Shown piece by piece: positions 26,583 through 45,637 of a DNA stretch of 64,000 nucleotides. Source of the stretch: an uncultured Candidatus Saccharibacteria bacterium (lineage in GTDB: Bacteria > Patescibacteriota > Minisyncoccia > Phycocordibacterales > UBA12445); contig CAZHDO010000002.1 of NCBI GenBank assembly GCA_964531375.1, forward strand, positions 21,469-85,468, in the 5' to 3' direction. A program made the position numbers and the translations under genes. Within the stretch, counting starts at the first letter, position 1; each line of letters starts with the position of its first letter. Below the pieces are notes generated by a model. The model had not been told where the DNA came from. It searched no databases and was given only the letters and a program-made list of their open reading frames with translations.

Positions 26583-29500
26583 ATGATCAATATTTTTGGG
26601 CACAAACCAATAAAATTACAACAAAAAGGTAAAACCCCTTATTCTTCGTCATTGCGAGCTGTGGGCGAAGCAATCCAGGATCCAGCACAATTAAATCTGG
26701 ATTGCCGCGGGCTACGCCCTCGCAATGACATATGGATAAAGTCTGTCTTTTATTCAACACTCGTTTTTACCGTCATAAGTGCGTCCATCTTTTCTTATTC
26801 CGCAAATAATTCCTTTGCCTCGACACTACCAATGGGGAACACCCCTGCAAATACGGCTGAAATTACTCAGATTGCGGCACTAGAAATAGGCAAACTTGTT
26901 CCAATTTTCCAGAAAATTAGAGAAATGGGAATAGAAGGAACCTTAGCAAATGGCAATCCAGAGACAATTAGAAAATTTAAAGAACTACAACCAATACTCG
27001 ACAGGCTTGCACCAGGCACAATGGACTCATTGAGCCAACTGCAAAACAACGTAAACGGTTATGCAAAACTTACTTTCTTAACAAAGGATCTGGCAAAAAA
27101 TCCTGAAATTGAAAAAATTAATCAAATATATGCGCTAACCCAATCGGTCAAAAACCTTGGCCAGGCGCAAGATATCAACGGTTTTATGAGTGCTGCTCAA
27201 GGACTCGCCGGAGTTCTACCAGGTCTAAGCCAAACACTTCCACAGATCCAACAAGGAATGAGCCTGATAAATCAATTCGCTGGGGCGCTCGGTGGCAACC
27301 AAACTCAAATCGCCATAAGTAAAATAGAATCGATGTCGAAACCTGGGGGCGCTCTTACCACTGCTCTATCCGGAGCTGGTACAGTTGGTCTTGGTGGGCA
27401 ATCACAATCCCTTTCGCAAATTTTAGGCGAACTTGATGAAGTCGACAAAATACTCAATGAAACTTTGCTAGCAGCAGATTATGACCTTTTTGCGGGTATG
27501 GACCCCCTCATTTCAAACCCAGAAGATATCGTCGGAGCAATGACCAGTGCACAAAAAGAGGCAATGAGTAAAAATAATCCTACCGGTCAAGGTGGTTGTC
27601 AGGGGGTACCAGCGGGACAAAATTCTCAAACAGGACAATACACAGGAAGTGGAAGTGGTGCCACAACAGCTTATCTTAAGGGCGCGGCTACACAATTCAT
27701 ACAAAATGGCGGAGTAAATGGAATTGTTCAACAAGGTTTAAGCGCGGTTTCTAATGCAGGCGTTAGTGGAATAGGCAATACCATAAGCGGTATCACTGGC
27801 GGGCTAACTCAGGCCACTGGACTACTTGGATCCACAGGAAGCCAATCAAATTCCTACATTAGTGCAATGACAAAAGGAATTACAGGTTTTACCGATGCAT
27901 ATGGCTCCGTATCAAGCGCACTTGGACTATCTGGCGGAGGGAGCAATGGTGTGCCTGTCATAGAACAACCAGGTCAGCTCATCAACTGGACAGGCGAAAT
28001 CAAAGACACAAACCAAAAAATCTGCGAAATCACACAGGCTATTCTTTCGGTTGAATTAAATATGTGGAACAAATTGACAAAGACTGACCCAGAACAGGCC
28101 AAAAAATCCGAAGATGCTTTTATTGCAACGAAAAAGGTAATAGAAAGGCAAAACAACGAGGACCGCAAGCCTCTCGACAACATTACAGGGCAAGGCCAAA
28201 ATTTCTATTCACCCGACACCTATCTATCACAAGCAATAAATGTTGGGCGAGCAATATACGAAAACGCTCTAAAGGGACTCTCTAGTCTAAATTATATAAG
28301 TCCGACAGCCAAGGACGACATGGTTCTAAAATTTAAACAGCAATCCGCGATAGAGCAGGGTGGGGCGAGAGCTAAGTACTTAGCAGCGACAACACCAACT
28401 TTTGATACATACAAATGGGTTACCGAAAGAACTACCAACCCTTTAACATTCCTCAATGGATTAATAAAAGTAGCTGAACCAAGAAACAACGTCATTGGAA
28501 ACCTTATGCTTCAAAACGAAGCCAGACAAGTAATGTTGGCTGACTATGAAAAGGAAGCTGAACTAAAATTAAAATACAGCTGGTTACCAGAAGAAACTTG
28601 CGACGTACCAGTTACAACTGACGACGGAAGAGTCGTTTGCGAAAAATCACACATTACAGTACCTGCAAGTATAAAGTCTGGAACAGCTCAAAAACTAAAA
28701 GACGGCTTAATTGAAAATACGCTTAACTCAAAACTTGCTGGACAAGACACACTAACCTTAATAAACCAGCTTCCGGCAGAAAACAAAATTGGCCAAGATG
28801 CTGAATATGCAAACTGGGAAGAATATAATTTAGCAAACACCGAAGCAAGCCCAGCAGACAACCCAGGCAACATAGGAGCCGGTGGTGGAGGTGGGGGTGG
28901 AAGTGGTGGTGGAAATGCAAACACTTCAAAACCATTAACACTAACCGAAATCAACACTATTCTTAATCAATTGCAAGGAATAACTGGAAGCGACACACAC
29001 GACCAAGGAGGAGATTCTTCTGAGCTATCGGAAGCTCCTGCTATAAATATCTCGATGTCTAAAGAAGACCTTGGCGATTCTGTGAGAATTTCCTGGAATG
29101 CAGATGGCGCTGAATCATGCAAAGCAGGCAATGATTGGCCAAACTATCTCGAAAACAACATTAACGGAAGCATAACAACCCCAATAAACTCAGATTTGGT
29201 CACGATGGATGAAATGGTAATCACCAAGCCAACCTTATTTACTTTTAAACCATACATTTCTGGCACAGACGATAGACAAATAAACGCACCACAGCCTTTT
29301 AATAAAACTTACTCAAAGGAAGGGGACTATCTAATAGAAACAGTTACCTATAAGCCAAACATAACCGGACTTATATCTGCTGACATTGTATTCTTAAACT
29401 TAAACGGCAAGGCTGTCTACATTACAGCAGGAGGTGAAGACGACTATATTTCTGCGTCGGACATTGTTAAGAGATTAATAACAACCTTAAATGACAAAGG

Positions 29501-29735
29501 TCTCTCCACAGACAAAGTAAGCGAATTTGCTCAATATACAATAAAACAAACGTATGACAGCCTTGTTATTTCAAAGAAAACAAAAATTTCCTCGACAGCA
29601 ATCGCTAGCATAAAAGGCGACCCACAATCGACAGCCCCAATCGGACTCCAGACAAGTTATGACTACAAAATTACCTGCAGTAACGCAATAGGCGACACAG
29701 CTGAAAGTAAAATAACAGTTGATTTTTTCAAATAA
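26583..29735 (+). CDS. Very large secreted or surface protein (1050 aa) with a Gly-rich linker.
   Basis: Its ATG overlaps the upstream stop. N-terminal TM/signal-anchor segment IWIKSVFYSTLVFTVISASIFSYSA. A poly-Gly run GAGGGGGGGSGGGN near aa 770. Confidence 0.5.
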   Translation: MINIFGHKPIKLQQKGKTPYSSSLRAVGEAIQDPAQLNLDCRGLRPRNDIWIKSVFYSTLVFTVISASIFSYSANNSFASTLPMGNTPANTAEITQIAALEIGKLVPIFQKIREMGIEGTLANGNPETIRKFKELQPILDRLAPGTMDSLSQLQNNVNGYAKLTFLTKDLAKNPEIEKINQIYALTQSVKNLGQAQDINGFMSAAQGLAGVLPGLSQTLPQIQQGMSLINQFAGALGGNQTQIAISKIESMSKPGGALTTALSGAGTVGLGGQSQSLSQILGELDEVDKILNETLLAADYDLFAGMDPLISNPEDIVGAMTSAQKEAMSKNNPTGQGGCQGVPAGQNSQTGQYTGSGSGATTAYLKGAATQFIQNGGVNGIVQQGLSAVSNAGVSGIGNTISGITGGLTQATGLLGSTGSQSNSYISAMTKGITGFTDAYGSVSSALGLSGGGSNGVPVIEQPGQLINWTGEIKDTNQKICEITQAILSVELNMWNKLTKTDPEQAKKSEDAFIATKKVIERQNNEDRKPLDNITGQGQNFYSPDTYLSQAINVGRAIYENALKGLSSLNYISPTAKDDMVLKFKQQSAIEQGGARAKYLAATTPTFDTYKWVTERTTNPLTFLNGLIKVAEPRNNVIGNLMLQNEARQVMLADYEKEAELKLKYSWLPEETCDVPVTTDDGRVVCEKSHITVPASIKSGTAQKLKDGLIENTLNSKLAGQDTLTLINQLPAENKIGQDAEYANWEEYNLANTEASPADNPGNIGAGGGGGGGSGGGNANTSKPLTLTEINTILNQLQGITGSDTHDQGGDSSELSEAPAINISMSKEDLGDSVRISWNADGAESCKAGNDWPNYLENNINGSITTPINSDLVTMDEMVITKPTLFTFKPYISGTDDRQINAPQPFNKTYSKEGDYLIETVTYKPNITGLISADIVFLNLNGKAVYITAGGEDDYISASDIVKRLITTLNDKGLSTDKVSEFAQYTIKQTYDSLVISKKTKISSTAIASIKGDPQSTAPIGLQTSYDYKITCSNAIGDTAESKITVDFFK

Positions 29736-29738
29736 AAA

Positions 29739-32564
29739 ATGAATTTTTGGAACAAAAATAAAATATTTAAACTTTTCCTAATTACATTAGTTGTTTTTTC
29801 TACGTTATTTTTAGCTGGTAAAGCACGGGCTAAAGATACAACTTTCCAGAATCAACAAATAATAAAAGAAGAACAAACGGAGACCACCGCAGCCATAGAA
29901 AACGCGAAAAATAGTATAGGAGCAGCTCCTTTAATAACAGATAAGAATAAAATTAAGGAAATAGGAGATAACTTGGCTATTGCAATTCCCTATATCGACA
30001 AGAAGATTGATGAGCAATCAAAATTAATTACTGATTTTAAAAAACAACAAGATGAAGTGAAGAAAAAAATGTCGAGAACAGGTTTGTTTGATAACGCAGA
30101 AGAAGCACAGGCTAAAATTGATTATTATAAAATAGAAAATCAACTCAAGACAGAAAACTATGTTTTATACGACCTAAAAGAAAAAAAGGCTGTATTAGAT
30201 CTTGAAAAAGCTAGAATTAGTGGGGATCAAAAACAAGTAAATGACGCAATAACAAAACTTGCTGAGGCACGTGTTAATCTAGGTTCAAATGACCACAGGA
30301 ATGACGTGGACACAAGTTTCTCTGGTATTATGACAACTGCGGTTTCAAGTCTGGTTGGTGATAAATGTACATGGGCAACACCAGGCATGCATTGTTTGTT
30401 TGATTTGATGTCGTGGGCCCTAACAGCTGTACGATATTTCCTTACAACCCTACTTAGTTATACTGCAGCAGCCTTTAATATCTCAATTGATATTTCAATA
30501 AATAATCTTTCCGGTTTCCTGTTCTCTATAAAGTCGATTGATATTGCCTGGAAAGTCTTAAGGGATTTGTGCAATATGTTTTTTCTCCTTGTAATGATGT
30601 ATATATCAATTGGAACTGTACTTCAACTTGATGGGGTGAATTGGAAAAAACAAATCGTTACACTGATATTTTCTGCACTTTTGATAAATTTTAGCATGAC
30701 GATAACTAGGGTTGTAATTGATACATCAAATATTTTTGCTGTTTATTTTTACGAACAAGCGGGCGGAGAAATGGTTGGTGTCAATTTAATAAAAAAGGTA
30801 GAAATAGATACCAATCTTGCTGGACTCAAAGAAACCGAAGGAACATCAAGTCTCGAAGGCTTAGTAAGCATGATTGGGACCTTGATACTATTAGTGTCAA
30901 CAATCTTTGTACTTCTTGCTGGTGCCATTTTAATCATCATAAGGATGGTGAGTCTCGTTTTTTTGTTAATTTTTTCACCACTACCTTGGCTAGGGGACGC
31001 AATCCCAAAATTTGGAGGTAAAATTACTGGCAGTTATTGGAATGAACTAATGGACCAGTCTTTATTTGCTCCTGCGTATATGTTTTGTTTATATTTTGCA
31101 ATGACAGTAATCAAATGCACAAATGTTTCACTACTAGGAACATTTAGTCAGGATAAATTCTCTTACAAGGTCCCTGGCGTTTCAATAATAATGTACAATG
31201 CGATTGTAATAAGCCTTATGCTTGGAGCAATAGCCGCCGCAAAAAAAATGAGTGCAGCCGGAGCTTCATTTGCAACATCAACTGCGGGCGGAATAGTGGG
31301 GGGTCTGACTGCTGGAGCAGCAGGATTTGCAGGCAGACAAACAATTGGCCGCATAGCTGGTTCTGATACTGTTACCGATTGGTTGAAAGATCAAAAGAAA
31401 AAAGGTGGCGCAACTGGCTATCTTGCTGAGACAGCAAGTGATTACATAGTAGACCCTATGGCAAAAGGCACGTACGACATTCGAGGAACAAAAGCAGCCG
31501 AGTCTTTTGAAAAAGCCTCTGATGCTAATTTTGGTAAAGCTGGTTCTGGAATGATCTTCGGAGAAGGTTGGGTCGGCGGATCTAAGGGTTATGCTGGTGG
31601 CTTAGCAGCAGCAAAAAAGGCCGAGAGACAGGCCGAAATTGACGAAAGAAAGGAGGCTACTGAGACAAACATAGAGGACGCTAAAAAAGAAATAGTTAGA
31701 TTGGCATCCACCCCAGGCGCTAACCCCGACGATATTAGAAAGAACCTTGGTTATCTAAACAAAGATAATTTCCTAGCAACTGTTGAGAAAAACCCAACCT
31801 TACTAATAAACAACGACATTACAAAATGGCTATCGGAAGATCAGATAAAAACATTAACAGATCCATCTAATAAAAAATCTTACGATGCTTTAGAAAAACA
31901 ATTATTACCAAAAACGCAAAATCCAAACGATAACAATAATCCATATACCAAGCTATCAGATTATCTAGAAGATCAAATGGGTGGCAACACAAAAAACAAA
32001 TCTGGGCGTTCTTATGCAGAGGTCAAGAGAGCAAAAAGAGCCCTTGATTCTGCAGTAAACAGCGGATTAACAACTGGTAATTTCGGTGGTGTAACGAGTA
32101 TAATAACAGGTCTAGCTGCTGGAAAAATTACAGACATAGCCGATGATTTATTTGACAGTACAGGCGCACTAAAAGGAGGAGTGGTAGAAGCACTAGGACC
32201 TAAAGAGCTGGGAGAACTAATTATCGGAAAATCGCTAAACAACACACAAACAACGGAACTAGGTTCAAAAGTTAGAGCCAGACTAGATACAATAAGAAAT
32301 GGAACGACAACGGAAGAAGACGATATTAGTAAAGACAGAATTCCTGATCCAGCAGGCGGAACCATGGATGACCCAGGTGGGGCAATGGAACCACATCCAA
32401 TCACAAGACAGCCTAGAATTAAGCAAGTTCCAAAGACCATCTCTGTTAAAATAAGAGTCCCAGCTGAAATGAAGCAAGACCCAAAGAAAACAGGAGATTT
32501 GCTGTTTAAAGACAAACAATTACAGAAACTTAGTGAATACCTGGATGGTCAAAAGATTTTCTAA
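29739..32564 (+). CDS. Polytopic membrane protein, VirB6/TrbL/TcpH-like candidate.
   Basis: Signal peptide MNFWNKNKIFKLFLITLVVFSTLFLAGKARA, then a coiled-coil region. A block of at least 6 TM helices spans aa 200-470. Gly/Ala-rich amphipathic segments follow, and the C-terminal domain is acidic. Confidence 0.45.
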   Translation: MNFWNKNKIFKLFLITLVVFSTLFLAGKARAKDTTFQNQQIIKEEQTETTAAIENAKNSIGAAPLITDKNKIKEIGDNLAIAIPYIDKKIDEQSKLITDFKKQQDEVKKKMSRTGLFDNAEEAQAKIDYYKIENQLKTENYVLYDLKEKKAVLDLEKARISGDQKQVNDAITKLAEARVNLGSNDHRNDVDTSFSGIMTTAVSSLVGDKCTWATPGMHCLFDLMSWALTAVRYFLTTLLSYTAAAFNISIDISINNLSGFLFSIKSIDIAWKVLRDLCNMFFLLVMMYISIGTVLQLDGVNWKKQIVTLIFSALLINFSMTITRVVIDTSNIFAVYFYEQAGGEMVGVNLIKKVEIDTNLAGLKETEGTSSLEGLVSMIGTLILLVSTIFVLLAGAILIIIRMVSLVFLLIFSPLPWLGDAIPKFGGKITGSYWNELMDQSLFAPAYMFCLYFAMTVIKCTNVSLLGTFSQDKFSYKVPGVSIIMYNAIVISLMLGAIAAAKKMSAAGASFATSTAGGIVGGLTAGAAGFAGRQTIGRIAGSDTVTDWLKDQKKKGGATGYLAETASDYIVDPMAKGTYDIRGTKAAESFEKASDANFGKAGSGMIFGEGWVGGSKGYAGGLAAAKKAERQAEIDERKEATETNIEDAKKEIVRLASTPGANPDDIRKNLGYLNKDNFLATVEKNPTLLINNDITKWLSEDQIKTLTDPSNKKSYDALEKQLLPKTQNPNDNNNPYTKLSDYLEDQMGGNTKNKSGRSYAEVKRAKRALDSAVNSGLTTGNFGGVTSIITGLAAGKITDIADDLFDSTGALKGGVVEALGPKELGELIIGKSLNNTQTTELGSKVRARLDTIRNGTTTEEDDISKDRIPDPAGGTMDDPGGAMEPHPITRQPRIKQVPKTISVKIRVPAEMKQDPKKTGDLLFKDKQLQKLSEYLDGQKIF

Positions 32565-32573: not shown

Positions 32574-33185
32574 ATGGAACATACAAAAGAACAAGTAAAT
32601 AATATTTTTCAATCACTACCGGTTGAAATAAAAACTGCAATTTTATCAGTTGAAACCTTTGATTCTATTGTAGAAATATCTCAAAAACACCAACTACACC
32701 TAGACCAACAATCTACACTTGGTCAGGAAACAGGGAATATTTTACTTGGAATCTCTGACCCACTAGATTTCGTGTCAACAATAAGTACAAAACTAGGAAT
32801 TGATAAAAACATAGCCAATCAAATTGTTGGCGAAATAAATGAGAAAATATTTAGTAAAGTTAAAGATTCACTAAGAAATATTCACAACGCTGCAAATAAG
32901 AAAGAGGTTCCAGTAAGTCCTGTGCCAGTTGCACCAAACCTTATTAAAAATACCGAAACACAAAATTTGAATGTTCCACAAAAAACATTAGATGTATTAC
33001 AAGGGAAGGGGGTTGTCACAGAACAAAAACACGACACAAGTATTCTCGGATTTTCAGTAGAGAAAATTGCCGACAAACCAACTAACATTCTAAGCCAGAA
33101 AATGAACGGAAGCTTCAATATGCCAAAAAACGAAACAGAAAATGGAACACAGAAAATAACAGATCCGTACTTAGAAAGTATATAG
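32574..33185 (+). CDS. Hypothetical protein.
   Basis: 203-aa ORF in the cluster, followed by an intergenic repeat element. Confidence 0.45.
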   Translation: MEHTKEQVNNIFQSLPVEIKTAILSVETFDSIVEISQKHQLHLDQQSTLGQETGNILLGISDPLDFVSTISTKLGIDKNIANQIVGEINEKIFSKVKDSLRNIHNAANKKEVPVSPVPVAPNLIKNTETQNLNVPQKTLDVLQGKGVVTEQKHDTSILGFSVEKIADKPTNILSQKMNGSFNMPKNETENGTQKITDPYLESI

Positions 33186-33388
33186 TATTGCGTATAAGTA
33201 TTTAGCATAAACACGAAAAGTATTAAGTATGGGTATATAGTGTTTAGTATAAATACACAAAGAGAAAAAAGACAAAATAAATAAAAAAAATGAGATATAA
33301 AATGCCAAATACCAGATACTACATACTTAATACAAAATACATAATACTGAAATTGCATATTTTTATTAATAATTCTTATTAATAAAAA
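33186..33388. repeat. Intergenic inverted-repeat element of the GTATTTAGTAT family.
   Basis: Forward units (gtataagtatttagcat, agtattaagtatgggtatatagtgtttagtata) on the left face reverse-complement units (atactacatacttaatacaaaatacataatact) on the right. Confidence 0.7.
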
Positions 33389-33390: not shown

Positions 33391-33819
33391 ATGCAATTTC
33401 AAGTTCCACAATTTATTGAAATAGAGGATAAAATAATAGGGCCTTTTACATTTTTCCAATTTATGTATCTTCTTGGTGGTTTTGGAGGTGGATATGCCTT
33501 ATATAGACTACTAGAACCATATTTAGGTAGTTTGGTTTATGTCGTAGTGGTACCTTTGATTATCTTTTCACTTGCATTGGCATTCTATAAAGTAAACGAA
33601 AGGCCATTTATAAATATCGTTGAGTCTTGGATAAAGTTTAAATTTAGCGGGAAAAGATATTTGTGGAAAAAGGAAGAAATAGTTATTAAAAAACAGGCTG
33701 ACGATATCGATATTTTAATCAGAAATGCCGGCACACAAAAAGCAGTCGTCCCAAAACTTACATCAGGAAGATTAAAAGACATTGCTTGGAGTTTAGATAT
33801 ACAGGAGAAGATAAAGTAA
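33391..33819 (+). CDS. PrgI/VirB3-like T4SS membrane protein.
   Basis: N-terminal motif VPQFIEIEDKIIGPFTFFQFMYLLGG, followed by two TM helices. This is the layout of the PrgI/TcpE/VirB3-like family. Confidence 0.5.
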   Translation: MQFQVPQFIEIEDKIIGPFTFFQFMYLLGGFGGGYALYRLLEPYLGSLVYVVVVPLIIFSLALAFYKVNERPFINIVESWIKFKFSGKRYLWKKEEIVIKKQADDIDILIRNAGTQKAVVPKLTSGRLKDIAWSLDIQEKIK

Positions 33820-33952
33820 GTATTGGGTATAAAGTATTTAGTATTTAGTATAAAGAGAAAAAGTATTAAGTATCGGGTATATAGTATTTAGTATAAATAC
33901 AAAACAAGACAAAATAAACAAAAAAATTATGTATCGTGTATAATATATTAGA
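33820..33952. repeat. Intergenic GTATTTAGTAT-family repeat element.
   Basis: gtattgggtataaagtatttagtatttagtataaag...gtattaagtatcgggtatatagtatttagtataaatac. Confidence 0.7.
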
Positions 33953-33954
33953 GC

Positions 33955-34329
33955 ATGGAAAAAATAAAGAGTTTTACTGATTTAAATACATGGAAAGAAG
34001 GGCATTCATTAGCTTTATCTGTTTATGAAATAACAAAATCATTTCCAAAAGAAGAAATATTTAGCCTTACCAACCAAATGAGACGATGCGCAGTGTCAAT
34101 TACATCAAATATAGCCGAAGGATTTAGTAGAAGGTCAAAAAAAGAAAAAATACAATTTTATTCAATATCACTGGGATCTATAACAGAACTACAAAATCAG
34201 TTAATCATATCAAAAGACATAAAATACTTGATGCAGGAAAAATTTACCACAATGTTTGACCAAGCCACGAAGACTCAAAGAATGATATATGGATTAATAA
34301 AAAGTGCAAAAGATGTTGTTTATACATAA
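33955..34329 (+). CDS. Four-helix-bundle protein (TIGR02436 / 23S rRNA intervening-sequence protein, Avd-like fold).
   Basis: 124 aa. TDLNTWKEGHSLALSVYEITKSFPKEE...MRRCAVSITSNIAEGFSRRSKKEKIQFYSISLGSITELQNQL matches this family closely. Confidence 0.7.
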   Translation: MEKIKSFTDLNTWKEGHSLALSVYEITKSFPKEEIFSLTNQMRRCAVSITSNIAEGFSRRSKKEKIQFYSISLGSITELQNQLIISKDIKYLMQEKFTTMFDQATKTQRMIYGLIKSAKDVVYT

Positions 34330-34361
34330 TACGTAATACAAAATACTAAATACATATAAAT

Positions 34362-35015
34362 ATGGCGAATAAAAGTACACAAGATTTCGTTCCGGTAGAC
34401 AAAATACATGATGGAATAGTTGTTCTGAAAGATGGGACAATGCTTGTTGTTTTTATGTGCTCGTCTTTAAATTTCGCGTTAAAATCAGCCGACGAACAGC
34501 AGGCTGTAATAATGCAATATCAAAATTTCTTAAACTCGCTAGATTTCACTGTTCAAATACTTGTTCAATCAAGAAGGCTTGATATTAAGCCATATTTAAA
34601 CTCTCTCAACGACAGAATGAGCTTGCAATCAAACGACCTACTTAAAATACAACTAAAAGAATATATTAACTTCATAAGAAATTTCACAGAGGGGGTTAAT
34701 ATTATGGAAAAATCTTTTTATGTTGTGGTTCCATATCAGCCAATGACTTTTATACAGCCAGGTAGTACAAGTAGCGGAATACTGTCTTCGATAACTGGGT
34801 TTTTTGGTAAAAGCGAAAACAAAATGGCTGAAAAGAAACAAGAATTACTTACCTTTGAAGAGAATAGAAGCCAGCTGGAACAAAGAGCAGGAGTGGTATC
34901 ACAAGGCCTCAGTAGGACAGGTGTTAGGACAGTCGCGCTAGGTACCGAAGAATTAATCGAACTTTTTTACAGAATATTTAACCCAGAAGACCAAGGTGGT
35001 GTGCCGAAGGTGTAG
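34362..35015 (+). CDS. VirB4/TraC-family conjugal-transfer ATPase, N-terminal domain fragment.
   Basis: VPVDKIHDGIVVLKDGTMLVVFMCSSLNFALKSADEQQAVIMQYQNFLNSLDFTVQILVQS matches the VirB4 N-terminal domain of Gram-positive systems (PrgJ/TcpF/Orf16-like). It ends 125 bp, and one frame, away from the ATPase ORF. Confidence 0.5.
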   Translation: MANKSTQDFVPVDKIHDGIVVLKDGTMLVVFMCSSLNFALKSADEQQAVIMQYQNFLNSLDFTVQILVQSRRLDIKPYLNSLNDRMSLQSNDLLKIQLKEYINFIRNFTEGVNIMEKSFYVVVPYQPMTFIQPGSTSSGILSSITGFFGKSENKMAEKKQELLTFEENRSQLEQRAGVVSQGLSRTGVRTVALGTEELIELFYRIFNPEDQGGVPKV

Positions 35016-35140
35016 GAAGGGGGTGGAGGGGAAGTATTAAGTATTTGGTATTATGTATTGTGTATATTAAATTTTATACAAAACACGAAACACCAAATAC
35101 TAGATACTAAATACAAAATACTTAATACTTTGTAAAATAT
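35016..35140. repeat. GTATTTAGTAT-family inverted-repeat element splitting VirB4.
   Basis: TAG-gaagggggtggagggg-aagtattaagtatttggtattatgtattgtgtat ... aaacaccaaatactagatactaaatacaaaatacttaatact. Confidence 0.7.
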
Positions 35141-36943
35141 ATGAGCTTTTTTGGAAAACAAAACGACGAAAATAAAATAGAGACAATTCTACCGCAGGAT
35201 ATATATTCTGGTGGGGTTTTGGAGCTCAAGGATATTATTTCTCCTTCAGCGCTAGAAATTGGATCAAATAGCATTAAACTAGGGGAGAAGATAGCGAGGA
35301 CGTTTTTCGTCATTTCTTATCCTAGGTTTTTGTCTGAAAACTGGTTTTCTCCAATAATAAATCTCGACAAAATATTCGATGTTTCTCTTGTAATACACCC
35401 GATAGACACATCCACAGTCCTTCATCAACTTCAAAAGAAACTAGCTGAAGTACAAAGCCAAATACACTCCAACGAAACAAAAGGAATGGTCCGAGATCCT
35501 ATGCTCGACACAGCTTTTCAAGACATAGAGACATTAAGAGACCAATTATCCCAAGCCAGAGAGAAAATTTTTGACGTCGGACTTTATCTCACAATGTACG
35601 CCAACAGTGAAGAGGAACTAAATAAGGTTGAAGCTGAAATTAAAACGATAATGGAATCAAGGCTGGTGTATATAAAACCTGCTCTTTTTCAACAAGAAGA
35701 AGGGTTTAATAGTATTATGCCAATCGCATCAGACGCGCTAGCCGTGAACACTAAACTTAACTCGGCTCCGCTTTCTAGTATTTTCCCCTTTATCTCTTTT
35801 GACCTTACTTCAAACAAAGGAATTTTATATGGAATAAATAGACACAACTCCAGCCTTATAATCTTCGACAGATTTTCACTTGAAAACTACAACTCTGTTA
35901 TCTTTGCCAAAGCTGGCTCTGGTAAATCTTATTTTACAAAACTGGAAATTTTAAGGTCTTTAATGTTCGATGTAGATGTAATTGTAATTGACCCTGAAAA
36001 AGAATATGAATTCCTAGCAGAAGCTGTCGGGGGTAGGTATTTTAATATTTCCCTCTCGTCAGAACACCACATAAATCCTTTTGACCTTCCACCAGTAAGA
36101 GAAGATGAATCTCCATCTGATGTTTTGAGATCTCACATTATTAGTCTCGTGGGGTTGTTTAGAATAATGCTTGGAGGAATGTCGCCAGAAGAAAGCTCTG
36201 TTATGGATAATGCGATAATGGAGACATACGCCCTTAAAGATATAACAGCGGATAATGATTTCACAAACGCAAATCCTCCGCTTATGTCTGACCTTGAACT
36301 CGTGCTCGCGGGTATGGACGGGGGGGCATCGCTTGCACAAAGGCTTCTTAAATACACACAAGGAACTTGGTCCGGATTCTTAAACAGACCAACAAACATC
36401 GACATCAATAAAAAATTCATAGTATTTTCTGTTCGCGATATGGAAGACGAACTCAAGCCTATCGCAATGCACATAATAATGAATAATATTTGGGGCTCAA
36501 TCAGAAGAGACCTGAAAAAGAGAATGCTTATTATCGACGAGGCGTGGTGGATGATGAAATCGCCAGATACCGCTTCATTCTTATACAGCCTCGCAAAAAG
36601 AGGTAGAAAATATTATCTCGGTGTGACAACAATTACACAAGACGTCGCCGATTTTTTAAACTCGCCATACGGTATTCCTATCATTACGAACTCTTCAATG
36701 CAGATAATATTAAAACAATCTCCAGCCTCGATAGGCCTTGTTCAAAAAACGTTCAACCTGACCGACGAAGAGAAGTTTTTGCTTTTAGAGTCGAATGTGG
36801 GGGAGGGAATCTTCTTTGCTGGCTTGAAGCACGTTGCAATTAAAGTAATCGCTTCATACACCGAAGATCAAATAATAACATCAGATCCATCACAGATATT
36901 AGCGATTAAAAAAGCAAAAGAAGATTTAAGAGCGACGGAGTAG
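35141..36943 (+). CDS. VirB4/TrbE/CagE-family T4SS ATPase (C-terminal body).
   Basis: Walker A FAKAGSGKSYF, Walker B MLIIDEAWWMM, middle region ARTFFVISYPRFLSENWFSPII, and C-terminal RGRKYYLGVTTITQDVADF. 600 aa. Confidence 0.75.
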   Translation: MSFFGKQNDENKIETILPQDIYSGGVLELKDIISPSALEIGSNSIKLGEKIARTFFVISYPRFLSENWFSPIINLDKIFDVSLVIHPIDTSTVLHQLQKKLAEVQSQIHSNETKGMVRDPMLDTAFQDIETLRDQLSQAREKIFDVGLYLTMYANSEEELNKVEAEIKTIMESRLVYIKPALFQQEEGFNSIMPIASDALAVNTKLNSAPLSSIFPFISFDLTSNKGILYGINRHNSSLIIFDRFSLENYNSVIFAKAGSGKSYFTKLEILRSLMFDVDVIVIDPEKEYEFLAEAVGGRYFNISLSSEHHINPFDLPPVREDESPSDVLRSHIISLVGLFRIMLGGMSPEESSVMDNAIMETYALKDITADNDFTNANPPLMSDLELVLAGMDGGASLAQRLLKYTQGTWSGFLNRPTNIDINKKFIVFSVRDMEDELKPIAMHIIMNNIWGSIRRDLKKRMLIIDEAWWMMKSPDTASFLYSLAKRGRKYYLGVTTITQDVADFLNSPYGIPIITNSSMQIILKQSPASIGLVQKTFNLTDEEKFLLLESNVGEGIFFAGLKHVAIKVIASYTEDQIITSDPSQILAIKKAKEDLRATE

Positions 36944-37009
36944 GAGGGGTAAGTATTTAGTATTAGGTATTTGGTATTTAGTATAAAAATACACAATACA
37001 AATAAAAAA
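36944..37009. repeat. GTATTTAGTAT-family repeat element.
   Basis: TAG-gaggggtaagtatttagtattaggtatttggtatttagtataaaaatacacaatac. Confidence 0.7.
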
Positions 37010-37609
37010 ATGCCAGAAGAAAATACGCCGACATTAGACAAAGCAGACTGGTTAAGCCTTTATCTCGTGGCCATTTTTTTTGATGTTATGGGCTGGTTGA
37101 TGGCTTTTGTGGATATTTTTTTGTTAGGGTGGGGAGGGTTCTTTTTAAATCTTTCTGGGGGGGCCACTTTCTCACTTTGGTTAGCAATCTGGAAAGACAA
37201 ATTCGGTGGTTTTGGTAAAATATCAACGACGTTTATAATTGTTTTTCTTTTAGAAGCAACCCCTATTGTGGGCGATGTTTTACCACTTTGGACTGGCATG
37301 ATTTACAGGTTACAAAAAAATCACGAAAAAAACCTAATGGGTACAATAACAGGCACCATCAAAGACAAAGCAACAAAAAAGAAAGAGCAGGACGAGAGAA
37401 GAAAAAAAGAGGAGGACGAAAAAAAGAAAAAAACAGAAGAAGATGGAAGAAGGGAAGAAGAAAGAAGAGAACAACAAAGACAAAAGGAAATGGATGAGAA
37501 GAAAGCAGAAAGACTGGAAAATGGAAAAAGTAGCCAAAATGAAAAGGAGGTAGGTGAAAATAAAAATGAGGGTCTGGAAGAAGCCCAACCTGCACAACAA
37601 GTAGAATAA
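37010..37609 (+). CDS. Small polytopic membrane protein with a Lys/Glu/Arg-rich cytoplasmic tail.
   Basis: ATG at 37010 (MPEENTPTL). Three or four TM helices, then a KKEQDERRKKEEDEKKKK tail. The ORF-track start at 36971 is a TTG inside the repeat element, and I reject it. Confidence 0.4.
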   Translation: MPEENTPTLDKADWLSLYLVAIFFDVMGWLMAFVDIFLLGWGGFFLNLSGGATFSLWLAIWKDKFGGFGKISTTFIIVFLLEATPIVGDVLPLWTGMIYRLQKNHEKNLMGTITGTIKDKATKKKEQDERRKKEEDEKKKKTEEDGRREEERREQQRQKEMDEKKAERLENGKSSQNEKEVGENKNEGLEEAQPAQQVE

Positions 37610-38631: not shown

Positions 38632-39414
38632 ATGAAAAATAAAACTTTTAAAAATGTAATAAGAAAAATGTTGGCGGTTCTTTGTTTTTTTATGCCAATA
38701 ATTTCATTTGCAGCCACAACTGGCTATATACCACTGGAACCACTGCCTGGGTTAAAATCCACGGACGGAGTTGTAAGTCCTGGTGATTATATTAAGTCTG
38801 CATATTGGTATGTTCTCGGAATGACGATTGCACTTTCTGTTTTAATGATGGTTGTCGGCGGCCTACAATACACACTCACTTGGGCAGATCCCGGCCAAGC
38901 AGGGGAAGGAAAGAAAAGGATCGAAAGTGCCGTTATTGGACTAATTCTTGCCTTACTATCTTGGCTTATTCTTTATACAATTAACCCACGGTTAGTTGAT
39001 TTAAGCATGCCGACAGCAAAAGAGTGTGAAAAGGCACCAACCGCATCAACAAACACAACAGTTATACCAGTATCTGGAAACGCAAGTGGTAGTGGAGCAG
39101 TAGGTCCAACAATCGAGGCACAAAAAGAACTGGAGGCTTTAAAGAAAAAAATAAAAGAAATTCCTGATATGAATAAACCAACAGAGACATCAGGATGGGA
39201 TCCCCTTTTGCAAATTCAACCACCAACACAAAACCCTAATCCAACCACAATAACAACACCTCCAGCCCCAACACCAACTCCGACTCCAGCGCCTACTCCA
39301 ACACCAGCACAAGAAAAACCAACAACATCAACACAAGCACCCTTTACCACAAACAATGGTTGGACATTTCACGAGGTTCCGATAGAACAACCTAATAATA
39401 ATCAAGGAGATTAA
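38632..39414 (+). CDS. VirB2/TrbC-like pilin candidate with a Pro/Thr-rich C-terminal extension.
   Basis: A long signal peptide, then two hydrophobic helices (AYWYVLGMTIALSVLMMVVGG and VIGLILALLSWLILYTI) separated by a short charged loop. The tail is TTPPAPTPTPTPAPTPTP. Assignment is by topology only. Confidence 0.35.
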   Translation: MKNKTFKNVIRKMLAVLCFFMPIISFAATTGYIPLEPLPGLKSTDGVVSPGDYIKSAYWYVLGMTIALSVLMMVVGGLQYTLTWADPGQAGEGKKRIESAVIGLILALLSWLILYTINPRLVDLSMPTAKECEKAPTASTNTTVIPVSGNASGSGAVGPTIEAQKELEALKKKIKEIPDMNKPTETSGWDPLLQIQPPTQNPNPTTITTPPAPTPTPTPAPTPTPAQEKPTTSTQAPFTTNNGWTFHEVPIEQPNNNQGD

Positions 39415-39427: not shown

Positions 39428-40720
39428 ATGAACAAAAATAAAATTATATTTATAATAATCGTCTCTCTGGTTGTGGTTTTGGGTATTGGGGGGACTGTTT
39501 GGTATTTAAACAATCAAATACAACCTCAAACCAATACACCGGTCACAAACCCTGTCACCACAACAGATAATGGAACTGGTGCTTTTCCTAGCTCTGACAA
39601 AATAATTCCTGTAAGCACTCCCACCAACCAACAAAACACTATCGATAACACCGCGGGAGCTGATACAGTAGAAAGGGTTCCTGGGGAAATTACAAGAAAA
39701 GCAGATGTTGGTGTTGCTGGTGTTGCTTTTATAGATAATTCTTTTAATGGCGCTGGGCCTCTTTTAAGATACATAGAAAAGGGGACAGGGCACATAAGCG
39801 ACATTTCTTATGACGAAAAAATACCTACAAAAATTTCAAACACGACAATGACTGGCGTTTTTGATACCGTTTGGAACAAAGACGCTTCTTCTTTAATAAT
39901 CAGAAGACTAGATGGCGTAGGAAATAATATTCAAACGATTTACGGTAATTTAGAAAGAGGTTTCGCTTCGACAACAATTGATGGGGAAGTGGGAAGCATT
40001 GTTGGTACAATTCTACCAAGTAGCGTAAAAGAAATAGCAGTTTCGCCGTTAAAAGATAAAATATTTTTCCTAAGTAAAAATGGAAACTCTACTATTGGTT
40101 CAATTTCAGACTTTAACAGAGTTGGGGCAAGCAACAAAAAGAATCAAATATTTTCATCTGCTTTTTCTGACTGGTCTGTGTCTTGGCCCACAACAAATTC
40201 AATATCTTTAGTCACAAAACCTGGATATAACGTAAGTGGTTATTTTTATTCTCTAGGGGTTTCAAACAATAAGCTCGAAAAGGTTATTGGGGATATTTCT
40301 GGTTTAACAACACTAATGAGCCCAAGTGGAGATAAAACAATTTATTCTGAGACAACAGGTGCTGGTTTTATGACATATTACACAAACAAAAGCACAGATT
40401 ATCCAAACATAATGCCAATAACAACACTCCCAGAAAAATGCGTTTGGAGTAAAATAAACGAAAACGTGGTTTATTGTGGCGTGCCTAAAACAACCCCACT
40501 AGCGAAATATCCTGACTCTTGGTATCAAGGAGTAACTTCATTCTCCGACAACATATACGAGATCAATTTAGACACAAATTCAGCCAGAGTAATGATCGAC
40601 GACCAAAAACTTGGAGGCATCGAGATTGACGTCACAAACCCAATCCTAAGCACAAAAGAAGACTATCTAGCCTTCATAAACAAAAAAGACAACACACCAT
40701 TTATGGTTAAGATAAGATAG
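39428..40720 (+). CDS. Membrane-anchored extracytoplasmic protein (beta-propeller-like).
   Basis: N-terminal TM segment IIFIIIVSLVVVLGIGGTVWYL, followed by a Thr/Asn/Ser-rich region. 430 aa. It is the last gene of the cluster and is followed by a large repeat element. Confidence 0.5.
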   Translation: MNKNKIIFIIIVSLVVVLGIGGTVWYLNNQIQPQTNTPVTNPVTTTDNGTGAFPSSDKIIPVSTPTNQQNTIDNTAGADTVERVPGEITRKADVGVAGVAFIDNSFNGAGPLLRYIEKGTGHISDISYDEKIPTKISNTTMTGVFDTVWNKDASSLIIRRLDGVGNNIQTIYGNLERGFASTTIDGEVGSIVGTILPSSVKEIAVSPLKDKIFFLSKNGNSTIGSISDFNRVGASNKKNQIFSSAFSDWSVSWPTTNSISLVTKPGYNVSGYFYSLGVSNNKLEKVIGDISGLTTLMSPSGDKTIYSETTGAGFMTYYTNKSTDYPNIMPITTLPEKCVWSKINENVVYCGVPKTTPLAKYPDSWYQGVTSFSDNIYEINLDTNSARVMIDDQKLGGIEIDVTNPILSTKEDYLAFINKKDNTPFMVKIR

Positions 40721-40905
40721 GAGGGGTGGTGTTTAGTATTTAGTATTATGTATATAGTATTTAGTATAAGCACTAACACAAACAATAAACCACTTTTTTA
40801 AGTAGTTGTAAGTTTAGTAGCATACTAAATACAAAATACTAGATACAATATACTTTTTGTTTTATTTATACTAAATACAAAATACAATATACATAATACC
40901 AAATA
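40721..40905. repeat. Large GTATTTAGTAT-family inverted-repeat element (between convergent genes).
   Basis: TAG-gaggggtggtgtttagtatttagtattatgtatatagtatttagtata ... atactaaatacaaaatactagatac ... atactaaatacaaaatacaatatacataataccaaatactaaatact. Confidence 0.75.
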
Positions 40906-41622
40906 CTAAATACTCTTCGCCTTTTGTTTTACGTATAACTCGTGGGCGATACCGAAGAGGTTACTTGTTATCCAGAACACAGAGACGGCTGCATTTAGTT
41001 TTGAGGCGATATAAACAATAAAAACGGGCAAGAAATACTTAACCTGCCAATTCATACTTTGTGCAAAATCATCGGCAAAAGAAGACTCTTTTCCTTGGCT
41101 CTTTGGAAGGTCAGGAACGGAGAGTTTGGTTTGAAAAAACTGTGTAATCCCAACCAAAACCGCTAAATAAAAATTGCTTGTAGCCATTTCTATAAATCCC
41201 AAAAACATAGTGTTTACTGTGGATGGAATTATATTAAATGAGAATATTACAGAAGAGGTAAGGTCTATTTTTTCGCTAAAAATATAATAAAGAGCTATAA
41301 ACATCGGCAATTGAATAAATAAAAGCAAAATAGTAGAAAATGGATTTATTCCATGTTCCTTATATAGATTCATTGTTCTGATGGCCTGCTCTTCTTGATT
41401 ATCCTTAAATTTTTCTTTTATGTTCTTTATATGTGGCTCAATTTCTTTCATTTTCTTCTGAGTCTCAAGTGATTTGTGAGAAAGGGGGAGTATTACGATC
41501 TTTGAAAATATCGTTAAAAGAACAATTGCGATACCAATATCGTTGTTTGGGACAATTGCACTCAAAAATATAATAAGATTATATAGGGGGTAATAAAAGA
41601 TGTTAAAAATAAATGAAAACAT
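40906..41622 (-). CDS. yidC: Membrane protein insertase YidC (short form).
   Basis: GIAIVLLTIFSKIVILPLS...QKKMKEIEPHIKNIKEKFKDNQEEQAIRTMNLYKEHGINPFS is the YidC/Oxa1 core. Confidence 0.8.
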   Translation of the reverse strand: MFSFIFNIFYYPLYNLIIFLSAIVPNNDIGIAIVLLTIFSKIVILPLSHKSLETQKKMKEIEPHIKNIKEKFKDNQEEQAIRTMNLYKEHGINPFSTILLLFIQLPMFIALYYIFSEKIDLTSSVIFSFNIIPSTVNTMFLGFIEMATSNFYLAVLVGITQFFQTKLSVPDLPKSQGKESSFADDFAQSMNWQVKYFLPVFIVYIASKLNAAVSVFWITSNLFGIAHELYVKQKAKSI

Positions 41623-41730
41623 AAGTTATGTATTTAGTATTAAGTATTTAGTATACAGTATTGGGTATTTAGTATACAAGAAGTATTAAGTATTATGTAT
41701 ATAGTATACAAAATACTTAATACCCAATAC
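41623..41730. repeat. GTATTTAGTAT-family inverted-repeat element between rnpA and yidC.
   Basis: gtatttagtattaagtatttagtatacagtattgggtatttagtatac ... atacttaatacccaatacctaatacttattactaaatacc. Confidence 0.75.
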
Positions 41731-42078
41731 CTAATACTTATTACTAAATACCAGAAGCCTCCTAAGCAAAAGGGTAATCTCATTCTCCAATTCTGCAAAT
41801 GACAACTTAGTAACACCCGGCTTGGCAAAAAAAGACAACGTTAAACCATCCTTAATAAGAGGCAGGTTCTTTTTTATTATATGTCGACACCTTCTTTTAA
41901 AAAGGTTCCTTTCTGTGGCTTTTTTGGCTACTTTACTAGATATAACAAAACCAAAGATACTTTTTCCTTGTCTATTGCTTAGGTATTTAACAGAAAGAAG
42001 GGGGGAAAAGGCCGATTTTCCCTTTTTTAGAAGCTCCTCGAAGTATTCTTTCTTAATTCTTCTTGTTTTATCTAACAT
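41731..42078 (-). CDS. rnpA: Ribonuclease P protein component.
   Basis: The basic RNR motif region KKATERNLFKRRCRHIIKK. Position between rpmH and yidC. Confidence 0.7.
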   Translation of the reverse strand: MLDKTRRIKKEYFEELLKKGKSAFSPLLSVKYLSNRQGKSIFGFVISSKVAKKATERNLFKRRCRHIIKKNLPLIKDGLTLSFFAKPGVTKLSFAELENEITLLLRRLLVFSNKY

Positions 42079-42197
42079 ATCTTAAGAGTATTATATTTAT
42101 GGCTCATTGCCAAACGTTTTCAGCTAAACACCCTAACTATACTTATTAAATAAAAATTACGAATTTTTGAGTTCGTAATTTTTATTTTTTTATTATT

Positions 42198-42332
42198 TTA
42201 AACTGTTAGCTTTGCTCTTCCTTTTCTTCTTCTCCTTTGAATGGTTTTTTTACCTCCAGGAGTAGCTTGTCGGACTAAAAATCCGTGTGTTTTATTCCTT
42301 TTTCCTTTTTTTGGTTTATATGTCTTTGACAT
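42198..42332 (-). CDS. rpmH: 50S ribosomal protein L34.
   Basis: A 44-aa ORF, too short to appear in the ORF track: MSLTYKPKKGKRNKTHGFLVRQATPGGKKTIQRRRRKGRAKLTV, which is canonical L34. Confidence 0.8.
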   Translation of the reverse strand: MSKTYKPKKGKRNKTHGFLVRQATPGGKKTIQRRRRKGRAKLTV

Positions 42333-42650
42333 TCCGCTACATTATCACAAGAGGCCTAAAGTGTAAAGTGTCAAAAACACAGTTAGGAAAATCTCATAAA
42401 ATAAAAGCTGGTTTATGTTTTTTCCCTTTACATTTTTATTTTAAATAGTTATCCACACCTAAACCACCTATTATATTTGAAACAGTCTAGTTTCTTTTTC
42501 AAAAGCAAAGAATATAATTATCTTATAAAAATTCAAAAAATAATTTACGTACCGAGCCACAGCATAAAAAAATAAAAAGAAACACCTATAAACAAGAAAA
42601 GATAATTTGGTCGAGAAGGATATATTATAAATTTTTATTTGATACGGTAA
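42333..42650. promoter_or_regulatory. oriC region (rpmH-dnaA intergenic) with a DnaA box.
   Basis: A perfect DnaA box TTATCCACA at 42449-42457, in the AT-rich spacer between divergent rpmH and dnaA. Confidence 0.6.
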
Positions 42651-44039
42651 ATGTCTGACAACAAAAAAATCTGGGACAGCGCTTTAGGGGAGATAGAGAT
42701 GGACGTCTCCAGAGCAAATTTTAGCACTTGGTTTAAAAATACATTTATCGCGAGAGAAGAAGATGGCAATATATATCTTTCTGTACCAAACGCTTTCGTA
42801 AAAGATTGGCTTTCAAATAAATATCACAAATTTATACTAAAGGCATTAAGAAATGTTTCCCCAAACACAAGAAATGTTGAATACATTATCCAAAAAGAAG
42901 GAACAGTTGTAAAAGAACCATACAGCAATCTAACAACTGAGCAAAAAACGACAGTAAGTCAGCTTAAACTAAACGAACCTTACGTAAATAGAGAGGATAA
43001 TCTTAATCCAAAATACATTTTTGAAAACTTCATCGTTGGACCTTTCAACGAACTAGCTTTTGCTGCCTCTCAATCGGTCATAAAGAGGCCTGGCGTGGAT
43101 TATAATCCTCTTTATATATACGGAGGAACTGGACTCGGTAAAACTCACCTTATACAAGCAATCGGCAATTCACTAAAGAAGGCTGGCGCTAGGGTTTTCT
43201 ACTTAACATCCGAAAGATACACTGTCGAACTTGTAAGCGCAATGCAAAACAATACGATTAATTCCTTTAAAGAGAAATATAAAAAATACGACACGCTTAT
43301 AATAGACGACGTTCAGTTCTTTGGAGGTAAAGACAAAACTCAAGAAGAAATCTTCCACCTCTTTAATGATTTTTACAACAACAATAAACAAATTGTTTTC
43401 TCATCAGACAAGCCACCGAAGTTCATACCAAATCTTGAAGAAAGACTTAGGTCGCGCTTCGAAGGTGGAATGACTGTGGATATCTCTAGACCAGAATATG
43501 AATCTAAGATCGCTATTCTTCAAACAAAACTAAAAGTTATGAATTATGCTTTGTCTGATGAAGCTCTTCAATTCATAGCATCTAATGTTCAAGAAAGCAT
43601 TCGAGAACTTGAAGGTGTTTTAAACTCTGTAATATGCCAGTCTCAACTTAAGAACAGAGAAATAAATATTCAAGAAATAAAAGCTCTCATAAAAAATAAT
43701 ACCAGACAGCAAAAAACAATTTCCTTTAAAGATATATTAAGAATAATTGCTGACTACTATAATATTGAGGAAAAATTCCTATACGAAAAGACCAGAAGGA
43801 GGGAAGTGGTAAAACCAAGGCAAATTGCTATGTACATCTTAAGAGAAGATCTTAATTCTTCTTATCCATATATAGGACAAAAATTCGGTGGCAGAGACCA
43901 CACCACAGTTATACACGCCTGTGAAAAAATAAAAGCTGATTTAAAGGAAAATGAAGCCTTACTACGAGAGATAGAAGAAATTAAAACCTTATTATTCGGG
44001 TCTGAAAACAAATCCCCAATTCTAGCTGGAAGTTGTTAA
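42651..44039 (+). CDS. dnaA: Chromosomal replication initiator DnaA.
   Basis: Walker A GGTGLGKTHL, box VII and sensor motifs, and the C-terminal DNA-binding domain KFGGRDHTTVIHA. Confidence 0.9.
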   Translation: MSDNKKIWDSALGEIEMDVSRANFSTWFKNTFIAREEDGNIYLSVPNAFVKDWLSNKYHKFILKALRNVSPNTRNVEYIIQKEGTVVKEPYSNLTTEQKTTVSQLKLNEPYVNREDNLNPKYIFENFIVGPFNELAFAASQSVIKRPGVDYNPLYIYGGTGLGKTHLIQAIGNSLKKAGARVFYLTSERYTVELVSAMQNNTINSFKEKYKKYDTLIIDDVQFFGGKDKTQEEIFHLFNDFYNNNKQIVFSSDKPPKFIPNLEERLRSRFEGGMTVDISRPEYESKIAILQTKLKVMNYALSDEALQFIASNVQESIRELEGVLNSVICQSQLKNREINIQEIKALIKNNTRQQKTISFKDILRIIADYYNIEEKFLYEKTRRREVVKPRQIAMYILREDLNSSYPYIGQKFGGRDHTTVIHACEKIKADLKENEALLREIEEIKTLLFGSENKSPILAGSC

Positions 44040-44270
44040 TTAACTGTGGATAAAAACAAGTTTAAGTTGTGGGTAAACCGTGGAGAAAAGAGGTGATAAA
44101 AAAGGGGTACAATTAACCACAGATGGACAGCAAAATTACAGTACGATAATCCACAGAGAAAAAAATAGATTACCTTTAAAATAAAAGATATAATTAAGTT
44201 ATACACTTATCAACAGTCCTAATAGTAATAATAAACTTTTATATATAATTATTTAAATAAATAAAATCCT
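44040..44270. promoter_or_regulatory. DnaA-box cluster (dnaA-dnaN intergenic; second half of oriC).
   Basis: TGTGGATAA at 44045-44053, TGTGGGTAA at 44068-44076, TTAACCACA at 44112-44120, TAATCCACA at 44146-44154. Confidence 0.6.
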
Positions 44271-45376: not shown

Positions 45377-45637
45377 ATGCTTCAAATAGGAACTTTACTA
45401 GAAAGATTTAAAAGGTTTTCTAAACCAGATATTTTAGTACGCGAAAAAACTTGTCAGATAATAGAGGAAGAACTTGGTATTAAATTAGATGACAAAAAAA
45501 TATCTTTTAAAAACGGCACTATTTGTGTGAGTACTTATAATCACGTTCTTAAGAGCGAGATTTTTATAAAAAAAGGAAGGATTTTAAGAAGAATTCAAGA
45601 CTCTATGGCTGATAAGAATATTTTAGATATCAGGTAG
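45377..45637 (+). CDS. DUF721 (DciA-like) small protein.
   Basis: 86 aa directly after dnaN. ISFKNGTICVSTYNHVLKSEIFIKKGRILRRIQDSMADKNILDI fits the DUF721 pattern (L.V.V.S..W..EL.....EIL..LN). Confidence 0.4.
   Translation: MLQIGTLLERFKRFSKPDILVREKTCQIIEEELGIKLDDKKISFKNGTICVSTYNHVLKSEIFIKKGRILRRIQDSMADKNILDIR

Follow-up and report, generated by a model that had tools for sequence, protein, structure and literature searches.

In Patescibacteria, the most abundant component of type IV secretion systems (T4SS) is TrsD, which is remotely homologous to the N-terminus of VirB4 (PMC12102498). Among 2272 TrsD homologues, 1664 adjoin virB4, and TrsD is essential in Ca. Southlakia epibionticum; the T4SS clusters often adjoin dnaA, dnaN and rnpA, and in the published survey most of them have no relaxase (PMC12102498). 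Here we analyzed a 64,000-nt stretch of DNA from an uncultured Candidatus Saccharibacteria bacterium (GenBank assembly GCA_964531375.1, contig CAZHDO010000002.1, positions 21,469 to 85,468; hereafter the window, with positions counted from its first letter), in which VirB4 is distributed over two open reading frames (ORF1 and ORF2) with a repeat hairpin in the spacer between them. We consider it very likely that VirB4 is naturally encoded by two adjacent genes in Paceibacteria and in most Patescibacteria, that the hairpin was inserted later into the spacer, and that the secretion apparatus can be expected to be functional. The two-gene VirB4 is already known, and the locus in the window is an ordinary member.

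The window shares its gene set and order, PrgI/VirB3, a small protein homologous to the start of VirB4, the ATPase itself and a pilin-like protein, with the TrsD and VirB4 pair of Patescibacteria, and also its position near rnpA, yidC, dnaA and dnaN (PMC12102498). It differs from those clusters in nothing essential, adding only a 125-bp heptamer hairpin and, between PrgI and the small protein, a four-helix-bundle cassette. A VirB4 N-terminal homologue of ~200–270 aa immediately upstream of a VirB4-like ATPase of ~620 aa is also found in TrsD/TraD and TrsE/TraE of the staphylococcal plasmids pGO1 and pSK41 (MPF_FATA subclass), and in the split VirB4 of Bacillota megaplasmids. In sequence these pairs are distant (24 bits for the TrsD model, 29% identity to a Pontibacillus protein), and they belong to plasmid conjugation machines with relaxases, whereas the cluster in the window is chromosomal. 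As stand-ins for the staphylococcal TrsD/TrsE pair of pSK41 (AF051917), we inspected a split pair of a Pontibacillus plasmid (Bacillota), in which a 274-aa protein and a 621-aa ATPase of the CD1110 family overlap by 11 nt, and the fused 797-aa gene of the C. botulinum plasmid pCDC3875, the N-terminus of which matches ORF1.

ORF1 (34362–35015, forward strand) encodes 217 aa and ends with a TAG stop codon, and ORF2 (35141–36943, forward strand) encodes 600 aa. The 125-bp spacer (35016–35140) opens right behind the TAG with a G-rich box, GAAGGGGGTGGAGGGG, and continues with GTATTNN heptamers. The two ORFs are in different frames because their starts lie 779 nt apart (779 mod 3 = 2). An earlier reading of this DNA, made from the sequence only, had described the lengths, the separation, the frames and an inverted-repeat element opening with TAG and the G-rich box; the ORF listing and the sequence bear out all of these, and the arms of the element could be located and its fold computed. 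The same sequence-only reading took ORF1 as the VirB4 N-terminal domain and ORF2 as the ATPase body, together covering a full VirB4. Its headline had the repeat insertion as the cause of the split, with a lineage that naturally encodes two proteins as the alternative.

The assignment of ORF1 was confirmed by profile and fold matches. Its residues 7–125 align to positions 2–121 of the CD1110-type VirB4 model (NCBIfam NF045971), and residues 3–123 match the mycoplasma VirB4 model (a partial NCBIfam match). The AlphaFold model of ORF1, built with 39 homologues in the alignment, has a pLDDT of 84.5, and its fold search of the PDB returned solely TrwK/VirB4 chains of plasmid R388, the best 14 matches having probability 1.0 and E ~2e-4. 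The sequence search of the PDB gave no match (best E 0.75), so that the fold search was needed for the link to TrwK. The Pfam family PF26593 ('TraC-like') is a precomputed match on the identical database protein (P0001) and on all 120 best homologues; the direct Pfam scan did not list PF26593 and gave only a sub-threshold TraC_F_IV match. Among 7927 database homologues of ORF1, the best 120 are all 204–231 aa long, and the named ones of these are all from metagenome-assembled genomes (MAGs) of Parcubacteria/Paceibacterota. An exhaustive phmmer search, run over 1.84 billion cluster representatives, yielded 2469 matches, and 149 of the best 150 are shorter than 445 aa and hence not full-length. 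Four of the longest matches (P0290, P0315, P0323 and P0350; 406–443 aa) consist of the same domain followed by a long disordered tail; in these TraC-like proteins the extension is a 200-aa low-complexity stretch rich in Pro, Gln and Ala, and the ATPase is not fused to them. The sole fused protein among the best 150 is P0383, with 797 aa.

ORF2 is the ATPase body. It scores 361.5 bits (E 8.8e-108) on NF045971, above the cut-off of 325, its residues 27–566 aligning to positions 185–733 of 752, and it matches the VirB4 C-domain structure 4AG5 in the PDB with E 4e-41. Its Pfam matches are P-loop_TraG, AAA_10 and the end of TraC_F_IV. The Walker A motif (AKAGSGKS, residues 256–263, nt 35906–35929) and the Walker B motif (MLIIDE, residues 462–467, nt 36524–36541) are both intact, and the best 120 homologues are 552–680 aa long, none of them near 800. 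The N-terminal part of the model (positions 1–184) is absent from the ORF2 polypeptide, and positions 2–121 of it are matched by the separate ORF1. Taken as a pair, ORF1 and ORF2 are collinear with the full protein, as seen in the CD1110-type VirB4 of C. botulinum pCDC3875 (797 aa) and in TrwK of R388, with ORF1 resembling TrwK in fold and ORF2 resembling 4AG5. Unlike the full-length VirB4, which is one polypeptide, the window has two, and the break comes within the N-terminal domain, around position 184 of the 752 model positions, not at the boundary between the N-domain and the C-domain.

The two-gene arrangement was compared across 80 loci fetched from species-representative genomes, of which more than 576 exist, and in close relatives; both genes were captured in 81 loci, that is, in 79 of the 80 species-representative loci and in two close relatives. 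Each of these 81 has two ORFs, with no fused gene among them. ORF1 stops 5–17 residues past a conserved NP motif in every one of them, and the projected gap between ORF1 and ORF2 has a median of 17 nt, and lies at 0–30 nt in 55 loci; over all loci, spacer lengths run from overlaps to 496 nt. In the four closest relatives found, with ORF1 identities of 79, 77, 75 and 64%, the spacers measure 114, 16, 39 and 4 bp, respectively. The proteins of the window end and begin as ...NPEDQGGVPKV* (ORF1) and MSFFGK... (ORF2); the ORF1 end ...NPxxQGGVPKV* is common to the three closest relatives and the ORF2 start MxxFG... to all four. The gene order PrgI, TraC-like, ATPase is the same in L001, L002, L083, L084 and L085. 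Both ORFs are under purifying selection, with pN/pS of 0.19–0.27 for ORF1 and 0.10–0.18 for ORF2, values obtained with saturated synonymous sites.

The rare fused homologue shows what the two proteins amount to together. P0383 is a real gene (L085, 544–2937; MAG GCA_964615945.1) in the context PrgI, fused VirB4, ..., yidC, rnpA, dnaA. ORF1 residues 1–208 align to its residues 1–209, and ORF2 residues 2–594 align to its residues 205–796 with 55% identity, so that the two ORFs tile the fused protein and no residues are lost at the junction. Such a fused homologue, in a matching genomic context, serves as a Rosetta stone: it is evidence that the two proteins function as a single unit. The fused gene of L085 may be the ancestral form or a secondary re-fusion.

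These comparisons decide against the possibility that a repeat element inserted into an intact virB4 of ~817 aa and left a pseudogene or an accidental two-polypeptide VirB4, which we regard as highly improbable. In its favor, the repeat is genuine and dispersed, three of the four closest relatives found lack it in the equivalent spacer, and one MAG does have a fused 797-aa form. Against this stand the equal split boundaries in 81 of 81 loci, most of them without the repeat and with gaps of 0–30 nt, the near-identical protein ends in relatives with spacers of 4–39 bp, the full set of residues relative to the fused form, and the purifying selection on both ORFs. Since the insertion lies wholly between the conserved stop and start codons, it removed no residues and created no pseudogene, and the VirB4 pair is intact. 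The marks of a pseudogene are missing from it: none of the 81 related loci has an uninterrupted gene, no residues have been lost and constraint is not relaxed. Of the two possibilities raised by the sequence-only reading, it is therefore the natural split, already published for Patescibacteria (PMC12102498), that holds; the finding which that reading had itself named as fatal to a disrupted gene, homologues in relatives encoded as two genes with the same boundaries, is what the 81 loci display.

A single VirB4 polypeptide might also arise if the halves were joined in translation, by programmed frameshifting, by read-through or by ribosome bypass of the hairpin. The predicted fold does bring the stop codon near the downstream ATG. 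The frame relation is not conserved, however, as the halves share a frame in 21 of 81 loci, which is about chance, and this argues that there is no recoding signal. Moreover, the spacer lengths range from overlaps to 496 nt, ORF2 always has its own Met at a conserved position, and in three relatives an extra four-helix-bundle gene (broken in L012) is situated between the halves. A programmed frameshift or bypass was rejected on the grounds of frame and spacing, and joining of any kind has a very low probability.

With two naturally separate genes, the ~215-aa protein (TrsD or 'TraC-like') provides the first part of the VirB4 N-terminal domain, and the remainder of that domain is in the ~600-aa protein together with the P-loop ATPase. 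The two polypeptides may associate non-covalently to give the equivalent of one VirB4, docked on PrgI/VirB3 at the membrane. In the lineage of the window, an ancestral short intergenic gap was very probably expanded to 125 bp when a copy of a dispersed palindromic element, heptamer-periodic and without an ORF, inserted into it. Its most likely effect would be at the RNA level, where tight stop-start coupling would be replaced by independent initiation on an AU-rich leader, and a stable stem in the operon transcript could be a processing or stabilizing site. Genes in the window have no Shine-Dalgarno sequence and start behind AU-rich leaders, ORF2 likewise, and because such leaders are general in the window, independent initiation of ORF2 is plausible.

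Several points weigh against the natural and functional split. The TrsD/TraD model NF041427 gives ORF1 24.2 bits (E 2.5e-5; residues 3–118 on positions 12–137 of 201), below the curated cut-off of 200 bits. Equating ORF1 with staphylococcal TrsD draws on remote homology and on the published hidden Markov model survey, and it is as a remote homologue, not as a curated member of NF041427, that ORF1 would work like TrsD. Two stable polypeptides and their physical association are likewise inferred. A 100-nt stem in the operon could lower expression of the ATPase through premature termination, cleavage or lost translational coupling; a scan of the spacer, with a simple consensus only, found no terminator of the T-tract kind or other. 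The consequence for annotation is direct: VirB4 is not broken, the secretion apparatus looks complete, and annotation pipelines should not mark the TrsD-like/VirB4 pair of Patescibacteria as a disrupted gene.

The hairpin in the spacer is ORF-less and heptamer-periodic (35029–35133, forward strand). The G-rich box (35016–35031, forward strand), directly behind the TAG, forms the left edge of the element and is followed by a left arm of five GTATTNN units (35032–35065), a loop and a right arm (35097–35131). Its RNA fold has a free energy of -27.7 kcal/mol with z = -4.6, and none of 200 shuffles was as stable. An Rfam search of the hairpins found no family at threshold, with only sub-threshold microRNA-like chance matches. 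The closest relative (L084, 79% ORF1 identity, 114-bp spacer) has a shorter GTAT-type hairpin between ORF1 and ORF2 and the next three relatives have none, from which it follows that the insertion is much younger than the VirB4 split. The hairpin is probably a harmless secondary insertion into a pre-existing intergenic spacer. Neither insertion boundaries nor a target-site duplication could be read from the empty sites of L002 and L083, which have diverged too far. In ~12 other species, the spacer between the TraC-like and ATPase genes independently carries heptamer-periodic hairpins or whole cassettes, with units such as ATTACGA, GCCTTAG, TTTTAGC, AACATNN and others, and three species have an entire four-helix-bundle cassette there (that of L012 is broken). 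This gap clearly tolerates such insertions.

The split may be natural and the hairpin still not neutral, acting as an RNase III-type processing site, an attenuator or an mRNA stabilizer that changes the ratio of TrsD to ATPase; this would modify, not replace, the account given above, and we judge it possible but on the whole unlikely. The stem is stable, the close spacing that nearly all loci keep between the halves is lost through the insertion, and related cassettes are co-oriented in operons in the manner of rRNA intervening sequences (counts below), the stems of which are cut by RNase III. The independent presence of hairpins and cassettes in ~12 other species suggests mere tolerance instead, and the spacer has no T-tract terminator in the consensus scan.

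The GTATTNN element is dispersed. The pattern has 71 matches in the window where chance would give 0.8, and these form nine clusters between 33.1 and 60.2 kb, which are intergenic or overlap gene ends by the last codons only. They surround the T4SS operon and the dnaA region, and the first 33 kb of the window has none. Clusters are found at 33178–33347, 35032–35131, 36953–36984 and 40729–40913, and further ones at 41630–41751, 45649–45721, 48290–48337 and 60173–60211. Heptamer hairpins are seen at the yidC–rnpA boundary and past dnaN. The arrays have exactly five units in 8 of 11 forward runs and 5 of 8 reverse runs. The next copy after the spacer (36944–37009, forward strand), with a G-box, five heptamers and a weak right arm, separates the ATPase gene from the membrane-protein gene that follows it. 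Copies are related beyond the heptamers. The right half of the spacer hairpin (35069–35129) is 80% identical to 33288–33348 over 61 nt, and the copy at 33231–33281 matches the left arm and leader of the four-helix-bundle cassette (33875–33925) along 51 nt with 82% identity. This common non-heptamer internal sequence indicates a dispersed family related by descent, and not independent products of slippage. The dispersed copies thereby share ends and some internal sequence with a longer gene-carrying element, as non-autonomous miniature inverted-repeat transposable elements do, and no transposase is associated with the GTATTNN element.

A TAG followed by a G-rich box (GGAGGGG-like) precedes four copies of the element (35013–35031, 36941–36951, 40718–40730 and 45635–45647), and at 35013, 36941 and 40718 the gene upstream terminates on this TAG. 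The G-rich box was considered as a Shine-Dalgarno sequence (GGAGGGG) brought to the ORF2 start by the hairpin, comparable to gene 38 of phage T4. This was rejected because the genes of the window have none and because the box is also present at 40718 and 45635, where it is not followed by a start codon and the adjoining gene downstream runs on the opposite strand. In the unit GTATTTAG (33172–33185 and 60173–60180), a TAG recurs every 7 nt, with a TAA on the other strand, so that three units close all three reading frames; the ORFs 32574–33185 and 57796–60180 end within the first unit of an array. In L002 (75% ORF1 identity), a different unit, AATTCGT/ACGAATT, occupies equivalent spacers (3915–4000 and 3430–3485), which means that the unit sequence turns over fast while the 7-nt period is kept.

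The nearest published counterparts of the repeats and of the genes that they flank are the tandem heptamer repeats found between genes in cyanobacteria, Beggiatoaceae and Bacteroidetes (short tandemly repeated repetitive sequences, STRR; TAACTGA) (PMC4679880), and the PF05635 ORFs in rRNA insertions of the candidate phyla radiation (PMC11270868). Like these published repeats, those of the window are 7-nt arrays confined to intergenic DNA near gene ends; the published ones are direct arrays (PMC4679880), whereas here inverted pairs form hairpins, often around a gene. The gene in question encodes a four-helix-bundle protein. We take the PF05635 four-helix-bundle proteins to be relatives of Avd, a protein of diversity-generating retroelements, and of 23S rRNA intervening-sequence (IVS) proteins, and we know of no function, catalytic or other, for the genes annotated as '23S rRNA IVS protein'.

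In the window, the full-length heptamer cassette (33817–34356, forward strand) consists of left arms at 33817–33894 (GTATTNN), the gene at 33955–34329 and a right arm at 34319–34356. It sits between the PrgI gene and ORF1, 400 bp upstream of the spacer hairpin, and its gene matches Pfam 23S_rRNA_IVP (PF05635) with E 5e-38 and TIGR02436 with E 2e-36. The best promoter-like match of the region (33915–33944, TAAACA-18-TATAAT, 10/12) is inside the cassette just upstream of the gene start, and a leader homologous to this segment persists in an ORF-less copy at 33250–33281. A consensus scan for promoters and terminators showed no enrichment. The T4SS loci contain 17 four-helix-bundle genes, all co-oriented with the operon and nearly all between inverted heptamer arms; the cassette architecture of the window is shared with 16 other T4SS loci, for example L020 (4627–5049), L028 (4627–5092), L012 (4618–5115) and L042 (3532–3980).

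The same setting recurs outside these loci. We collected 80 metagenomic loci (L088–L167) encoding four-helix-bundle proteins of 57–67% identity, 73 of them with full flanks. In 64 of the 73, the upstream flank pairs with the downstream one as an inverted repeat better than in any of 20 shuffles. Autocorrelation is strongest at a lag of 7 nt for 64 of the upstream flanks and 55 of the downstream flanks, and the median lag-7 identity within the best 35-nt window is 20/28 upstream and 19/28 downstream, compared with 10/28 in coding controls. Neighboring genes are co-oriented with the four-helix-bundle gene in 58 of 59 cases upstream and 57 of 61 downstream. No rRNA was found within 1.5 kb of the cassette in the 20 loci tested, and the copy in the window lies between two protein genes.

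The cassette is comparable to the IVS of 23S rRNA with a PF05635 ORF, known from Leptospira and others, in that a small four-helix-bundle gene is placed between long inverted repeats able to form a long stem and is co-oriented in a longer transcription unit. It differs in being outside the 16S and 23S rRNA genes, in a protein-coding operon, in having lineage-specific 7-nt arrays as arms, and in leaving ORF-less hairpin derivatives in other spacers. We tentatively propose, at less than even confidence, that the spacer repeat belongs, as a variant without an ORF, to a hitherto undescribed class of Patescibacteria cassettes, which in full form have a PF05635 gene within inverted lineage-specific 7-nt arrays, co-oriented in operons, and which behave as intervening sequences of mRNA. 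On this proposal, the cassette would be inserted between operon genes, repeatedly inside the T4SS operon, and its arms would pair as a long stem in the polycistronic transcript. The four-helix-bundle protein might bind its own arms, possibly as a multimer reading one heptamer per subunit, and since the unit often contains a TAG or TAA every 7 nt, an array closes all three frames. We found no description of heptamer hairpins with PF05635 genes in the literature, our coverage of which was incomplete, so that this absence is weak evidence.

The cassette architecture is more novel than the VirB4 split and deserves a separate look. This by-product may be worth more than the VirB4 result itself, as genes for '23S rRNA IVS proteins' lie systematically within heptamer-periodic hairpins of protein operons and leave ORF-less hairpins behind, and the setting offers a concrete, testable handle on the role of both the four-helix-bundle proteins and the repeats.

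The remaining genes place the pair in a Patescibacteria T4SS cluster, with VirB4, the TraC-like protein, PrgI/VirB3 and a pilin clustered near dnaA. The first gene of the trio encodes a PrgI/VirB3-like inner-membrane T4SS protein (33391–33819, forward strand; Pfam PrgI, E 1.6e-11), and a T4SS pilin-like protein (Pfam T4SS_pilin, E 1.9e-7) is encoded at 38632–39414 on the forward strand, with an equivalent gene in L002 and L083. The candidate ORFs for a VirB6-like polytopic membrane protein, at 39428–40720 and 26583–32564, had no match in the Pfam scan. The replication-origin neighborhood (40906–45371) begins ~4 kb downstream of the ATPase gene and contains, all assigned by Pfam, yidC (40906–41622, reverse strand), rnpA (41731–42078, reverse strand), dnaA (42651–44039, forward strand; ~5.7 kb downstream) and dnaN (44271–45371, forward strand). 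The downstream membrane-protein gene was called mechanically as ORF 36971–37609 from a TTG at 36971 inside the repeat, and its true start is likely the ATG at 37010 (MPEENT...); its protein, without a Pfam match, has hydrophobic N-terminal segments and a tail very rich in Lys and Glu.

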